Assembly (NCBI GenBank): GCA_951406725.2
Contig: OX597821.1
Span: 29,946,001-30,010,000, forward strand
Direction: 5' to 3'
DNA: 64,000 bases
Source: Octopus vulgaris
Taxonomy: Eukaryota
Under the pieces are notes generated by a model. That model worked only from the letters and a program-made list of their open reading frames with translations. It was not told the origin of the DNA and did no database searches. Below, in pieces: positions 29,290 through 45,838 of this stretch; within the stretch, counting starts at the first letter, position 1, and every line of letters begins with the position of its first letter. The position numbers were made by a program, and so were the translations under genes.

Positions 29290-31066
29290 TAATAATGGTT
29301 TCAAATTTTGGCACAGGCGCAGAAGACTTCGAGGGGAAGAAAAAGTCAGTCACACCGAACCCAAGTAGTTGACTGGTATAATTTTACCAATTGCGAAAGG
29401 ATTAAAGACAAAGTCAACCGCGATACAACTCGTGATGTGAACGTAAAATACGGACGAAATGTCGCTAAGCATTGTGTTCGGCGAGCTAACTGTTATGTCA
29501 GCTCAGTGACTGAATAAAAATGATCCTGGTGGAATTTGAACTAAGAATGCTAGAATAAAATAATATAGTATTTGATTTAGGCACAACGCCGGTAATTTTA
29601 CGAGTAGGGTCTGTCGATGGCATCAATCTCAGTACTTGAATGTTTTTCTTTTTCATTTTACCGATAATGAATGGATAAAAGTTAAAATTCTCCTCGGTGA
29701 AATTTGAGCTCAGAACTTAAAGAGTCGGAGCAAATACGACGTTCTGAAAATTCTTTCAGTATGCTGCTTATTTGAGCCATAATAAGGATTTCTGACTTAA
29801 GCACAAGTCTAGTAATATTGCAGGGAGGGTTCTAGACGATTATATCGACCCCGGTGTACGACTAGTATTTATTTTATCGACTCCGAAAAGCAAAGTCGAC
29901 TTCAGCGGAAGGATCTCTACCTTTTGACCTAAAGATTTAAAAAAATTATTTTTTGTAACTAAACACCTTCAAACTTCGGACACTGGAAGAATGTGTCATA
30001 TAAAACATCTTTTACTCTTAGCGTTTTTGAGAAAAAACTAATATTTAAGAAGTTATTTCACGTTCAAGTTGTCCTATTTCGGTAATTTCAACCAGTCAGT
30101 GACGTCTATTCAGCTGAATAAAATTACTGCCGTTGTTTGTCAGCAATAACTTCCGGCGGTGTATTTTTCGTTTGTCACCGTTATTTATGATATCCCTAAC
30201 CCTAACCCTAAAACCCCAAACCTAACCCTAAAACCAGTACAAATGCACGAAAGATGTCATAAATAACGGTGACAAACGAAAAATACTCCACCGATAGTTG
30301 TTGTTGACAAACAACGGCAGTAATTTTATTCAGCTGAATACACGTCATTGATTGGTTGAAATTACCAAAATAGGACTACTTTAATGTGAAATAACTTCGT
30401 AAATATAAGTTTTTCTCAAAAATGCTAAGAGTAAAAGATGTTTTATATGACACATTCTACCAATGTCCGAAGTTTGAAAGTGTTTAGTTACAAAAAATTA
30501 TTTTTTAAATCTGTAGGTCAAAAGGTAAAGATCCCAGCGGAATTTGAACTGGAAACACAGAGATGAATGAAATGCTGATTCTGCTAGTTTGTCGTCTTAT
30601 TTGAGCTACAATAACGACCTATGATTTAGGCGCAAGCCTAGTAATTATGAAGGAAGAATGTTAGTCGATACCATCGAGTCCCAGTACTTAGACTGGTATT
30701 TTATTTTATCGACCCCGGAGGAATGAAAGATGGAGTTGTTCTCGGCAAGATTTGAACTCAGAAGGAAAAGAACCAGAGCAACTATAACAAAATATTTTAC
30801 ACACACTCTAATGGTTTTACGAAATCAGAGGTTTTTAAATCTACAATAATTTTTCTCTGATTTTGTCACAAGGGCAGAAATTTTGAGCATGTGTATGTGT
30901 GGGGGTGCAATTCGATTGCATCGATGAGCCCGGGATTTTGCTATTATTTCAGTTAAACGACTGAAGCATGAAGGGTAAAATTGACATCGGCGGGATTTGA
31001 GCTCAAAACGTAAAGAGCGAGAATAACTACTAAATATTTTGGTAATATTTGGTTAGCTCACAGCCT
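29290..31066 (-). mobile_element. Head-to-tail array of five SINE family B copies (one interrupted by a MITE)
   Basis: Repeated TTTATCGAC/GAATTTGAACTC motifs at ~250-bp period, separated by a TTTGAGCTACAATAA-like spacer. Confidence 0.8.
29911..30534. mobile_element. Foldback GGATC-ended MITE (Merlin-like) with ~280-bp arms and a (CCCTAA)n centre
   Basis: 8-bp TSD CAGCGGAA at 29903-29910 and 30535-30542; arms 29911-30193 and 30253-30534. Confidence 0.95.
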
Positions 31067-31201
31067 ATTATTTGAACTACACTAATAGATATAATTGTGA
31101 GTAGATTACATAAGTTTTAAATATTTTATGGAATGGAGGATAAAGGAAAGGATTTAAATGTCAGTACTCCATAGGCTGGTATTTCATTTATTTCTAAAAA
31201 A

Positions 31202-31734: not shown

Positions 31735-33095
31735 CTGAAAGTGACAGGCAGTAACTTGAGGGACTTAATTCGGAAAGACCCGTTTTGTTTCTTTTTTACT
31801 TTATCCGTTGATATTTATCAACAGAATAAGTGTGTATGTGTATGCCTGATCCCATACATGCATTCATGCACATACGCATACACTGGTAGTTGTGCCCCAA
31901 CATGGGCAAAACTCGTTTGCTACAAGTAGTAAAATCATATACAATCGGTTTCCTAACAGTTACTATCTATACAATTCTCCACACAAAATATTGATCAGTT
32001 CTAGGCTAATGCACAATGGAATTGAAACCGGAAATAACTGTTTGGGAAATGAAAATCTTAACCGTACTGCTATGTCTACACCAATGATACTTAAATAATC
32101 TATTCGGAAATGACGAATATCAAAGTATACCATAGCCGGATTAGAACTGAAATCATAGAACAACATAGCTATATGCTGAAAAACATTTAGGCGGTTCGTA
32201 AACCACTGCCCTACTGCTTTAGGAAATCATACATGAATAGTCTTGCCATTATTATTGCAGAACAAGGAGGTGGTAAATCTTTTGTGTATTTTTTCAGTTT
32301 TAAAGTATGTACAACCAAAGCTAATTATAACTTAACTTACATCGCCTCTAGGATGAATATTTGTATTGTTCGGCTTCATTTGATTTTGGAATCTCCAGGA
32401 ATTGTTGTGGGTATTTCAACATTTAGCGTAAACTACTTGGCAGAAAAAAAATACAGCCAGCTGGAGTTTATATAATCTGTGTTAAGACTGCATGAAATTT
32501 GCAAGCTACAGTGTTAGTGGTTAAGATAGAAAACTGGCCGGGGTGTTAAATTGTTCGTTATGTTACTTCGCTGTATTCATTCTGGCTCTCTTCGCACTGA
32601 TACTACTGCTGTCAGCTCTGCCTTTCATCAGTTCTAGGTAGGTAAATAAAATGCTTGTATTGTTGTCCATTCTTTTCTTTCTGTTTTTCTCTCTTTCTTG
32701 AAGAAGCAAACTGTTTTCAAACGTGATGACGGCTGTATTCACTAGGTCTAAAACAGCCATCAGGAGGTGAGGACACAGGGCAATGTAATGAAATTTTTGC
32801 CTATTTTTGTTTATTTCCAGGTCGTCACCGATTAATCAGACCTATGATGACACATTATTCAGTCCTTATCATCCGTTATATTTTTGTGTCCTGAAAGTGA
32901 CAAGCAATAACTTAAGGGACTCAATTCGGAAAGACCCGTTTTTTTAAAAAAATTCTATTCGTTGATATGTATCAGCAAAATGAGTGTGTATGTATGTGCC
33001 TGATCTATACATGCATCCATACACATACGCATACATTGGTAGTTGTGCCCCAACATGGGCAAAACTCGCTTGCTACAAGTAGTAAAATCATATAC
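31735..33095. repeat. Pair of ~205-bp direct repeats (31735-31942 and 32891-33095)
   Basis: Both run CTGAAAGTGACA...AATTCGGAAAGACCCGTT...GGTAGTTGTGCCCCAACATGGGCAAAACTCG...AAAATCATATAC. Confidence 0.92.
32528..32766 (+). CDS. Candidate two-exon fragment (32528-32637 and 32704-32766) with a hydrophobic segment
   Basis: Donor AG|GTAGGT at 32638, long polypyrimidine tract plus AAG acceptor, donor GAG|GTGAGG; phase-compatible RKLAGVLNCSLCYFAVFILALFALILLLSALPFISSRSKLFSNVMTAVFTRSKTAIR. In-frame stop upstream and no good 5' acceptor or ATG. Confidence 0.3.
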
Positions 33096-33218
33096 CATAG
33101 TTGTGATGGCTAAAACAGTCTAAAGAATATACAAGGAAAAAAAAACAAAATAAACGCCTTTCACACGCAAGCTGAAAGTATGGGTAACGATAATCGTCAC
33201 GATTAAAAGCCATCTGAA

Positions 33219-33897
33219 GGCAGCGAGCTGGCAAAATCGTTAGCGCGTCGGGCGAAATACGACGTGGTATTTCGCTCATCCATACGTCTGGAGTTCAAAT
33301 ACCGTCGAGGTCGACTTTGCCTTTCATCATTTCTAGGTTGATTAAATAAGTACCTGTTTCGCACTAGGGTCGATTTAATCGACTTCATCCCTTCCCCAAA
33401 GCTGCCCTTGTGGTAAAAAATTTAAATATTTATTAAACCACATCTGAAAGTGGTGAGCTGGAAGAATTGTTAGCACGTCGAGCAAAATGCTTCGCGGCAT
33501 TTTGTCCGTCTTCCCGTGCTGATTTCAAATTCAGCCCAGGTCGACTTTGCCTCTCATCCTTTCAAGGTGATAAATAAAGTATCAATGAAATTCTGGGGGT
33601 TAATGTAATCGACTAGCCCCCTCCCACAAAATTTCAGGCCTTGTGCCTTTTGTAGGAATGACCAGTAGACCACATCTGAAGGCAGCAAGCTGGCAGAATC
33701 CTTAGCCAGCCTGGCAAAATGCTTAATCGGTATAGCGTTCGTCTTCACGTTATGAGTCTAAATTTCGCCATGGAAAATTTTGCTTTTCATCCTTTCAGGG
33801 TCGTTAAAATAGGTACCAGTTGAGAAGTACGTTTGATGTAATCGTCCTGCCTCCCCCGCAAAATTTCTGGTCTTGTGTCAAAATTTGAAACCAGTTT
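33219..33897 (+). mobile_element. Head-to-tail array of three SINE family B copies
   Basis: Heads at ~33219, ~33449 and 33681, each preceded by a CATCTGAA-containing spacer. Confidence 0.9.
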
Positions 33898-34754
33898 TAA
33901 CCCACATATAACACTCCAGAAAAGCTCATCTTATGCGAATTGTATATTTATTAAATTTCTGTGTTATCAACGAAGACAGTAAAGAAAAACGGACGAGATG
34001 ATATAACTTCTATTGGAAATCGAACCTGACCCTTGAATGCTACTTACGAAATGACGCATGAAAAGTAAGATTAGCTGCCATTCTTCGATGACTAGTCTTA
34101 ATTGTAATGAGCAATGTAATAATTATGTATGCAATTATCTCTTTATTACTATGAGCTGGTTGATGCATATATATATGCGATGCATGTTGTGAATGAAATA
34201 AATGAATAGCGTTTGTGATGCTTGTGTGTGTTTGTGGTAGTGCGTGTTAAGTGTACCTGCATATCTCTGTGATTATTATTGCGTGTCCATGTGTATGTGT
34301 AGTGTGCATCCATTTATGAATATTCAATAAAGATTATGCTCTAGATGTAGCTTGTTACGGAGCACGTATACGGGAAGTAATTTGATTAATATGAAAGGAA
34401 GACGTGTGCACAATGATTTTGATTGCATATCTATTGGCACATAGATCAGATATTAGTTGACAGGAAGGAAAAATGGTGTGGTGGGGGAGGTAACTGGTTT
34501 TCATTAAACCAATGAGAAAACAAGGGGCTAACGAGAAAGATCTTCGGCCTTTGTCTTTTAATACAATAAAAACAACAGCCAAATAATCCTCAAATCATTC
34601 CCTTATGTTTTAAAAAGAGGAGGGGCGCATTCGATAATATAGCAATAGATCCTCACCAAAATTGAAGATATTGAAAAGTAATACTGAATTTCCATTTGTT
34701 AAGTTGTGGGCGTTGTGGTAAAATAAAAATTAGATTGCACCAGATTTTAGAACT

Positions 34755-36552: not shown

Positions 36553-37189
36553 CAAGGTAGTTTACTGCTGACCATAAACACATTTTCAATTTTACTATCC
36601 CTCTAAATGCTTTAAATTCTTCTCAACAGGTCTTTGAACTGTAAGTAAACTCCCGTTGAGGTTTGGATGATGGATTAGCAGAATCGTTAGAGCGTTGCGC
36701 AAAATATCTTACCGTATTTCTTTCGAAACGAATTTTATGATACACGTGACTCAACTTTTAGTATTAAGACTTCTACCGTCAAATGTTTTATTTTTTTTCT
36801 TAACTTGCTAAGTTGTAAGGCATGCACACACACACATACACACACACACACACACATACACACACACACACACACACACAAACACACAACGCACGCATAC
36901 GTACACACACACACACACAAACAAGCACATGCCGACGAACACACATATTTATGCGCACATGTACACAGAAAAACACAGAGAGGGGAAGAAGGAGAGTGGG
37001 AAAGTAAGAAAGAGGGAGAGAAAGAGAAGGAGAGCGTGTGAATGAAAAAGAACAACACATTAATCATTGCTTCGGGACGTGATAAAACTAGATGTCTCTC
37101 CTCAGGCCTGGACTCAGATCGGTCAAGCTGACCCTTGAAAATACGGTTGATATCATGAAAAACAAGACCGCAATATTACAGCTCAATAA

Positions 37190-37600
37190 GGCGGCGAACC
37201 GGCAGAATCGTAAGCATGCTGAAGAAAATGCTTATCGGCATTTCGCCCGTCTTTACGTTCTGAGTTCAAATTCCACCGAGGTCCGCATTGCCTTTCATCC
37301 TTTCGGGGTCAATAAGATAAATACCAGTTGAGCACAGTGATGTTGATGTAAGCGGCTTCATCGCGCCTCCGAAATTCCTGATCTTGTGCTCAAATTTGAA
37401 ACCAATATTATGGCTTAAAATGGCAGCGAGCTGGTAGAAACGTTAGCGCGCCGGGCGAAATGCTTAGCAGTATTTCGTCTGCCGTTACGTCATGAGTTCA
37501 AATTTCGCCGAAGTCGACTTTGCCTTTCGGGGTCGATTAAATAAGTACCAGTTACACACTGGGTTCGATATAATCGACTTAATATGTTTGTCTCTCCTTG
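37190..37600 (+). mobile_element. Two tandem SINE family B copies
   Basis: Heads at 37190 and 37422; spacers CAATATTACAGCTCAATAA and CAATATTATGGCTTAAAAT. Confidence 0.88.
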
Positions 37601-41214: not shown

Positions 41215-41665
41215 GAGCTGGCAGAAACGTTAGCACACCGAGCGAAATGCGTAGCCGTATTTCGTCTGTCGTTACGCTCCGAGTTCAAATTCCGCCGAGG
41301 TCGACTTTGCCTTTCATCCTTTCGTGATCGATAAATTAAGTACCAGTTACGCACTGGGGTCGATGTAATCGACTTAATCCCTTTGTCTTTCCTTGTTTGT
41401 CCCCTCTGTGTTTAGCCCCTTGTGGGTAGAAGAGAAAAATAATTAATGGTTTCAGATTATGGCATAAGGACAGAAATTTCGGGAGTGACTAAGTCGAATC
41501 CATCGAACTCCCCGTGCTCAGCTGGTACTTGTTTTAGCGACCCCGAAAGGATGCAAGTGAAGTCGATCACGGGAACACGACGGAATTTGAACTCACAACG
41601 TAAAGACGGACAAAATGCCACTTAGCATTTTTTCGCGGCCTGCTGACGATTCTGTCAGCTCGACG
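41215..41665. mobile_element. SINE family B (+, 41215-41438) inserted at the tail of an older family B copy (-, 41445-41665)
   Basis: Direct repeat TAATTAATGGTTT on both sides of the + copy. Confidence 0.88.
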
Positions 41666-45622: not shown

Positions 45623-45838
45623 ATAATCCTTTCTACTAAAGGCACAAGGCCTGAAATTTTGGAGGAGGCGACTAGTTGATCACATCGACCCCAGCGTTTC
45701 ACTGGTACTTCAATTTTCGACCCTAAAAGGGTGAAAGGCAAAAATCGATCTCGGTGGAATTTGAACTCGGAACGTAAAGACGGAAATGGCGTTAGGCATT
45801 TGGCCTGGCGTGCTAACGAGTCTATCAGCTCGCCGCCT
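45623..45838 (-). mobile_element. SINE family B embedded in (AAT/AAC)n
   Basis: Tail CCTTTCTACTAAAGGCACAAGGCC, head CAGCTCGCCGCC; an older copy follows at ~45960-46150. Confidence 0.88.

Follow-up and report, generated by a model that had tools for sequence, protein, structure and literature searches.

Bivalve multimers of short interspersed elements (SINEs) have been reported in two layouts, TSD1-(SINE-TSD1)n and TSD1-(SINE)n-TSD1, TSD being the target-site duplication (PMC11481361). In that account, arrays of the first layout hold about 3% of the copies, their units are highly similar, and unequal recombination is proposed for their origin. Rodent and bat B2, Dip and Ves elements form head-to-tail multimers, some of mixed families, which include 40–49% of the B2 and Dip copies; the origin of the B2 multimers is stated there to be unresolved (PMC8466645), and a further report on rodent SINEs also leaves the route of formation open (PMC10702118). 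For Alu, the title of a study on target site triplication (Lee et al. 2015, cited in PMC11481361) implies SINE tandems with a thrice-repeated target site. Beyond SINEs, tandems of the Drosophila P, jockey and R1 elements are described as double insertions, with site preference and a TSD at the junction (10.1101/158386), and R2 integration is reported to be aided by homology arms, that is, by RNA homology beside the nick (PMC12203849). Octopus OR1/OR2 elements are listed as CORE-SINEs (PMC4824008, PMC4758252), and a SINE share of 4% is quoted for an octopus genome (PMC12988792).

The array considered here lies in a 64,000-nucleotide stretch of Octopus vulgaris DNA (contig OX597821.1), referred to as the window, and consists of three SINE copies with one TSD between and around them. 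Arrays of this genome resemble the bivalve multimers in their TSD-separated units and in chains whose later units, behind an initial full head, are truncated at one head position; both layouts occur in the bivalves too, where some arrays mix other families (PMC11481361). Unlike the bivalve TSD-type arrays as described, the octopus units are not highly similar and vary in subfamily and age; of 97 young ends, 44 lie in chains, several to a chain. Like the Drosophila tandems, they appear as independent insertions at one site with a TSD between them: the junction TSD is locus-derived, and the units are of independent origin when tails are included (AU p = 0.004; 0.185 without tails). As described, however, the Drosophila tandems are without copying of the resident's 5' part or fixed internal landing sites (10.1101/158386). 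The rodent and bat multimers differ in their A-rich tails, and their description gives no fixed internal head sites (PMC8466645). The R2 homology arms (PMC12203849) work like the completion step proposed below for the octopus SINE, but R2 is autonomous and uses one fixed rDNA site, whereas the homology of the octopus SINE would come from its own earlier copy, at any locus. The TSD-(SINE-TSD)n layout and double insertion are therefore known, and what would be new is the resident-aided completion together with two fixed landing sites in the head. Our literature search, mostly of papers accessible without subscription, retrieved no description of stacked SINEs in octopus, nor of SINE self-insertion completed by homology, let alone with mixed subfamilies at the rate seen here.

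These routes of multimer formation, left open for rodent B2 and ascribed to recombination in bivalves, leave different marks, and the octopus genome holds many arrays of mixed, datable subfamilies; sequence data should therefore suffice to test the rival routes. Were the 5' junction completed by homology, the SINE would shelter in its own copies, chimeras would bias copy ages and subfamily calls within arrays, and there would be a concrete mechanism for tail swapping between SINE subfamilies.

The octopus SINE family

The SINE units are 218–231 nt long. The genome contains 62,831 exact 15-mer head words, and 279 fragments were found in 120 preset 10-kb stretches (1.2 Mb), of which they represent 3.9%. 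Among 30 tRNA-model hits, the best global match of the head was tRNA-Arg(TCG) (37 vs 34 for the next, with a 17-nt gap), a modest similarity. Many of the top tRNA-model hits are tRNA-Lys(TTT) and tRNA-Thr(AGT) variants, which may be tRNA-like repeats. The family shows the features of tRNA-derived SINEs, namely a tRNA-related head, short and interspersed copies in high number, variable TSDs and an AT-rich or simple 3' end. We presume that it resembles the OR SINEs (OR1/OR2); given its tRNA-Arg-like head and its share of about 4% of the sampled DNA, OR1/OR2 is the likely candidate for its identity. The groups A, B1, B2, C1, C2 and C3, labels of this analysis, are defined by their tails, and their median divergences are 6.5% for A (n = 82), 12.5% for B2 (12), 16.8% for B1 (25), 20.0% for C1 (37) and 11.8% for C2 (4). 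The B1, C2 and C3 tails have (ATT)n 3' ends.

Alu elements are primed at poly(A) by L1. In the octopus SINE, TSDs were searched in the 57 of 74 full-length copies without SINE-internal sequence downstream and accepted at a score of at least 9. They were present in 31 of these 57 single copies, compared with 4.4% of 1064 mismatched controls, and had a median length of 16 bp, the longest being microsatellite matches. The TSD sequence differs from locus to locus, without one fixed genomic target of the R1/R2 type, and its first bases match the 3' end of the element. AA directly precedes 63–64 of the 74 heads. At least one base, mostly in a stretch ending in AA, lies between TSD and head in 30 of the 31 single copies with a TSD and is absent from the downstream TSD. 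The spacer is thus made up of the TSD and the junction bases, and "TAA" does not represent a target motif, so that the nicking originally proposed at the head junction between TAA and GGCGGCGAG has to be abandoned. By the logic of target-primed reverse transcription, the head-adjacent bases would come with the element's 5' junction, priming would occur at the TSD end remote from the head, and the first nick would fall about 16 bp upstream of the head.

No tail shared with a partner LINE was found among the 30 best reverse transcriptase (RT) loci of 56,077 candidates (best local score 30/120); 24 of the 30 belong to one family ending in (ATT)n, four to another, and two are single. We assume from the appearance of its RT that the commonest young LINE with an (ATT)n end is CR1-like. 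The loci L228–L250 carry a young, abundant LINE family, with frames of up to about 950 aa among the matches listed and a 3' end formed by a short hairpin-like sequence plus (ATT)n; it is a candidate SINE partner. Folding of six individual SINE tails gave no significant stability (z from -0.4 to 0.65); a small hairpin around CTTGT, with stems varying between subfamilies, was seen by eye only.

Structure of the focal array

At 33203–33912, three SINE copies of about 215 bp (within 33219–33896) alternate with four spacers:

33203..33218, forward strand: spacer S1, TSD copy plus 5'-junction bases, unique with its flank
33219..33432, forward strand: SINE unit U1, tail subfamily C3, about 19% from its consensus (tail from 33405)
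33433..33448, forward strand: spacer S2, TSD copy
33449..33664, forward strand: SINE unit U2, tail subfamily B1, about 17% from its consensus (tail from 33637)
33665..33680, forward strand: spacer S3, TSD copy
33681..33896, forward strand: SINE unit U3, tail subfamily C1, about 21% from its consensus (tail from 33869)
33897..33912, forward strand: spacer S4, last TSD copy, followed by flank; last 5 bases unlike those of S1–S3

The four spacers are decayed copies of one locus-specific 16-bp TSD. Ungapped matches over 16 nt were 13 for S1–S2, 14 for S2–S3, 12 for S2–S4, 11 for S1–S3, 10 for S3–S4 and 9 for S1–S4. The last 8 bases, ending in CTGAA, are common to S1–S3, and S4 differs there. When compared with the 16-mers that precede 110 unrelated heads, none of S1, S2 and S3 scored above 10/16 (0/110 at 11 or more); 12/16 was attained by 31 of 5927 unrelated pairs and, for S2 outside the focal array, only by L282 among 645 heads from the fetched loci and the window. 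The upstream flank with S1 matched only itself in the 2.80-Gb genome (G000), using a search that skips very common words, and no paralogous empty site was found by it. The spacer starts given in the original prediction (33203, 33433, 33666 and 33897) were recovered, each of its seven quoted motifs is present once, and its view of the spacer as locus-derived agrees with the uniqueness of the flank with S1 and with the low scores of S1–S3 against unrelated heads. A master spacer common to the arrays was also considered and rejected by the spacer comparison and the genome search with the flank. Tandem Repeats Finder made no report over 33203–33911 because the units are too diverged, and ARAGORN and Rfam gave no match at the focal locus.

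Evidence for a separate origin of the three units

The best tail scores assign U1 to C3, U2 to B1 and U3 to C1, in line with the three tail types expected; the predicted likenesses of the U2 tail to the copy at 45623 (45623–45837, B1) and of the U3 tail to the C1 copy at 37190 were both recovered. The units differ from each other at 65/207, 69/205 and 72/213 aligned sites (31–34%), which is approximately the sum of the distances of each unit to its separate consensus. In the full-alignment tree, U1–U3 were joined by 52 further B/C copies, no more than 14 from any group and excluding A copies and those only weakly assigned. U1 branched within the C2/C3 set (99/90) and U3 with C1 (92/77), and a 98/97 branch placed U2 on its B side. 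A single clade of U1–U3 was rejected with the tails included (p-AU 0.004) but not on the body alone (first 165 columns; AU p = 0.185), although the body-only tree still placed U1 in a starred set without U2 and U3. The expectation that the units would not cluster together is thus sustained with tails and not on the body alone. Nevertheless, from the divergence of 31–34% and the three tail subfamilies it follows that the units are separate insertions at one site and not duplicates, as had been proposed. We regard this as very probable, and it would be much the simplest reading of the focal array.

In the same body-only tree, six B1-tailed copies join C2/C3 bodies (97/87), showing that head and tail types are mosaic across the SINE family.

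Abundance of stacking and landing at SINE heads

Using the focal array as a query, we retrieved many similar stacks, each with its own spacers; the array is ordinary for this genome, one of very many. Genome-wide, exact head words lie 200–261 nt apart on the same strand in 551 cases (294 + 257) over 62 gap lengths, compared with 52 head pairs over 31 gap lengths in the off-period control and about 22 per 31 under uniform placement. Head-to-tail stacking is therefore enriched 5–13 times, some true tandem duplicates included. In the 120 preset stretches, a same-strand tail lies no more than 45 bp upstream of 9 of the 125 heads, a count attained in 0/1000 shuffles (0.9 under the null), whereas opposite-strand adjacency amounted to 2 head-head pairs vs 0.28 (40/1000) and 2 tail-tail pairs vs 0.54 (100/1000). 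Arrays are thus commoner than random insertion would give, as anticipated. Tail-to-tail inverted SINE pairs abut or overlap at their AT-rich ends at 41215–41664 of the window, L011:9219–9536 and L019:8382–8811, without significant enrichment.

Of the 97 intact A ends, 44 continue directly into the head of another copy, 35 of them at position 48 and 9 at position 15; these junctions fall in 28 chains, and because several of them belong to one chain, the 44 are not independent events. The words at positions 15 and 48 are themselves variants of the A end (AGAA, GGTATTT). SINE-head sites represent 46 of 289 GGTATTT words and 95 of 17,975 AGAA words, and no A end was found on a non-SINE GGTATTT among those listed. 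Since so few of these words are SINE-head sites, word availability does not explain the landings. The copies of this SINE family are themselves insertion sites for it: landings next to or within the heads of older copies far exceed chance, likely because an incoming copy pairs with the old one to complete its insertion. At L068:2552–3367 and L070:1093–1716, A-type chains with a TSD are inserted in the antisense strand of an older copy, at the GGTA word that this copy has near position 136.

Probable completion of the junction on the resident copy

In 10 A-over-B/C junctions with a complete fragment downstream, the upstream A was the less diverged in 9 and the more diverged in 0 (5.3 vs 10.1% over invariant columns, p = 0.004); the reverse layout, B/C over A, had 0 occurrences, and 19 A-over-A junctions showed no difference in divergence. 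The first units of A-to-48 chains have heads that are more diverged than those of other A copies (10.0 vs 6.5%), and an older diagnostic base is present in 5/17 of them vs 1/31 (p = 0.017). Most position-15/48 junctions are seamless, and the resident head is kept as an ordinary TSD of about 15 bp in L045, L057, L330 and L355, which demonstrates that insertion into DNA copies occurs. The position-15/48 chains agree with an insertion whose target was a resident DNA copy and whose 5' join was formed through homology to it.

A gradient of similarity from head to tail, first noticed in hand-picked groups, was examined in two sets of 60 loci. From the first, chosen by pattern, 37 A-A pairs were obtained, of which 32 passed the filters, 18 with a shared spacer and 14 without. 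The 18 shared-spacer pairs differed by 2.8% within pairs vs 7.0% across pairs at positions 1–40, and by 9.7 vs 9.5% at positions 201–231; the likeness was greater in head than in tail in 13/18 (p = 0.0013). The held-out set, chosen with the sequences unseen, yielded 43 A-A pairs, 40 past the filters, 24 with a shared spacer and 16 without. Its 24 shared-spacer pairs gave a flatter gradient in the same direction (head 4.2 vs 7.6%, tail 6.6 vs 7.3%; 18/24, p = 0.0028). No gradient was observed in the A-A pairs without a shared spacer, neither in the 14 nor in the held-out 16 (p = 0.90 for the latter). In addition, junction bases are often common to the first two spacers of a pair and missing from the last. 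The 5' unit of L324 is, together with its spacer, an almost exact copy of a decayed C1-like neighbour over about 165 nt, beyond which it has an A tail; L181 and L334 are similar chimeras. Uniform similarity would be expected of pure duplication and none of pure target re-use, and the gradient is unlike either. The likeness of heads but not tails in young pairs suggests that insertion is primed by microhomology and that the resident copy serves to complete the 5' junction.

These observations can be assembled into a sequence of steps. Single copies carry, by the TSDs found, a duplication of about 16 bp, the first bases of which match the 3' end of the element; between it and the head lie a few additional bases that end in AA. 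On the model of target-primed reverse transcription, a putative partner LINE protein would nick the bottom strand where the target matches the tail, and the 3' end of the RNA would prime at this nick. Each insertion is seen to leave the target intact on both sides, and landings of new copies at the upstream TSD of a resident, or at its head positions 15 or 48, far exceed chance. The similarity gradients suggest that the 3' end of the cDNA would, at such sites, meet the adjoining homologous head or body of the resident and be joined to it by annealing. This joining would duplicate the spacer and the junction bases together with a 5' portion of the resident that varies in extent. The product would be a chimera of resident head and new tail, placed 5' of the resident.

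For the focal array, we favour three separate retrotranspositions, each primed by a few matching bases and finished by pairing with a resident copy, as the probable course of events. For the family as a whole, homology-completed self-insertion is probably a main driver. The focal array had been put forward as the clearest evidence for self-targeting; it is too old to show the route, which is visible instead in the young pairs and the position-15/48 insertions. At its age, homology completion and plain re-use of the target are not separable, and either may have built it.

A bolder reading, which we consider doubtful, is that the SINE RNA itself pairs with a resident DNA copy and recruits the LINE machinery, and that the A-subfamily 3' ends (AGAA, GGTATTT) were captured from the family's own head in earlier chains. 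If true, self-targeting would be self-reinforcing and would yield new head/tail chimeric subfamilies, a homology-guided homing by a non-coding retroposon.

Alternative explanations

The alternative that survives best, although we consider it unlikely, is that a site duplicated by a first insertion is simply hit again, either TSD copy being open to a later, independent insertion while the resident SINE remains passive. This is the published explanation for P, jockey and R1 tandems (10.1101/158386), it fits the focal array fully, and it is in agreement with the older pairs. In old B/C pairs, the class of the focal array, the 5' and 3' units are equally diverged (10.0% vs 9.1%, p = 0.41; two heads could be used in 42 of the 70 pairs fetched, the power being lowered because exact tail words were required in both units), and head sharing is only 1–2 points. 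The order of subfamilies is balanced for C2/3-then-B1 against B1-then-C2/3 (46 vs 41, p = 0.67) and biased for B1-then-C1 against C1-then-B1 (95 vs 59, p = 0.005). Most old-class pairs carry (ATT)n spacers and can therefore be explained as plain microsatellite targets, with either side open to insertion. The head-pattern and preset sets also contain full-length mixed pairs; the 5' unit is the younger one in 6 of these and the 3' unit in 1, and in 5 further cases a younger 3' unit runs on into an older copy. The two-unit case predicted at about 37171–37600 is real, and its younger unit is likewise the 3' one, which target re-use also accommodates:

37172..37600, forward strand: second array, formed by a spacer, a C1 unit (37190–37401), a spacer and a young A unit from 37422, the latter interrupted by a (TATC)n microsatellite

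Within the focal array, rare shared states (one in U1–U2, one in U2–U3) are within chance; that it ends in the oldest subfamily and that S4 is unlike S1–S3 fits growth at the 5' side and could also be decay. However, target re-use does not predict junction bases common to S1 and S2 and missing from the last spacer, the gradient of similarity and the chimeras of resident body and new tail, or landings at head positions 15 and 48 far above word availability.

An origin in tandem duplication, with TSDs recombining unequally and the tails later acquired from other subfamilies by gene conversion, is improbable and, for the focal array, already largely refuted. It has been proposed for the bivalve TSD1-(SINE-TSD1)n arrays (PMC11481361), the body-only tree is compatible with one clade, and near-identical arrays exist in this genome (L153, L341, L377). 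Indeed, shared-spacer pairs that are near-identical throughout (L153, L341, L343, L377) show that DNA-level duplication also occurs and inflates the stacking enrichment. For the focal units, it would nevertheless have to account for a divergence of 31–34% that approximates the sum of the distances to separate consensuses, for three tail types and for a U1 body placed in a starred set apart from U2 and U3. Two extra conversions would be required here, and at other loci conversion would have to be confined to the 3' part of the 5' unit.

Even less probable is the formation of multimers at the RNA level in one event, by read-through dimer masters or by RT jumping between RNAs. Many A-to-48 chains do have one outer TSD and mostly seamless junctions, template jumping is known for the R2 RT (PMC12203849), and the rodent precedent is, as stated, unresolved (PMC8466645). 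However, units of equal age would be expected, yet the downstream fragments are older in 9/10; this route cannot place a locus-specific spacer between units, and the focal spacer is unique; and the retained heads show insertion into DNA.

Ty3/TRE5-like elements are tethered to Pol III transcription factors and insert upstream of Pol III units. A similar tethering of the SINE, with insertion immediately upstream of Pol III units in general and SINE heads among them, would agree with the clustering of landing sites from about 16 bp upstream to position 48 of the tRNA-like head, but is the least credible of these routes. A same-strand SINE tail lies within 45 bp upstream of 0/30 tRNA-model hits (about 2 expected at 7%; a weak test, many of these hits being possibly tRNA-like repeats), opposite-strand head-head pairs are few (2) and the copying of the resident's head is unexplained. 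At L200:1254–1485, an A copy begins 15 bp downstream of a same-strand tRNA-model hit.

Other repeats in and beyond the window

An older array of the same family lies upstream of the focal one:

29290..31075, reverse strand: older and longer array of the same SINE family, in which one spacer of its own recurs (five HMM hits; about seven units when counted by eye)

Its spacer resembles those at 37172 and 37404, with dissimilar flanks, which may be chance. The array is interrupted by a foldback element (29911–30534), inserted in a SINE unit, with terminal inverted arms of about 280 bp (86–94% complementary) that enclose a telomere-like (TAACCC)n stretch, and flanked on both sides by direct repeats of 8 bp without mismatch (29903–29910 and 30535–30542); it looks like a non-autonomous DNA transposon. 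A direct repeat of about 210 bp (31735–31945 and 32891–33098; 86–95% identical, 1154 bp apart) ends about 100 bp upstream of the focal array. Elsewhere in the genome, homogeneous multi-unit arrays and short head-only tandem arrays (55–58 bp) were observed at L322 (C3:162.82 Mb), L347 (C6:20.17 Mb), L377 (C9:100.40 Mb), L326 and C18:41.664 Mb, the "C" in these positions referring to the genome and not to the tail subfamilies. They are likely later expansions by unequal crossover, that is, early SINE-derived satellites.
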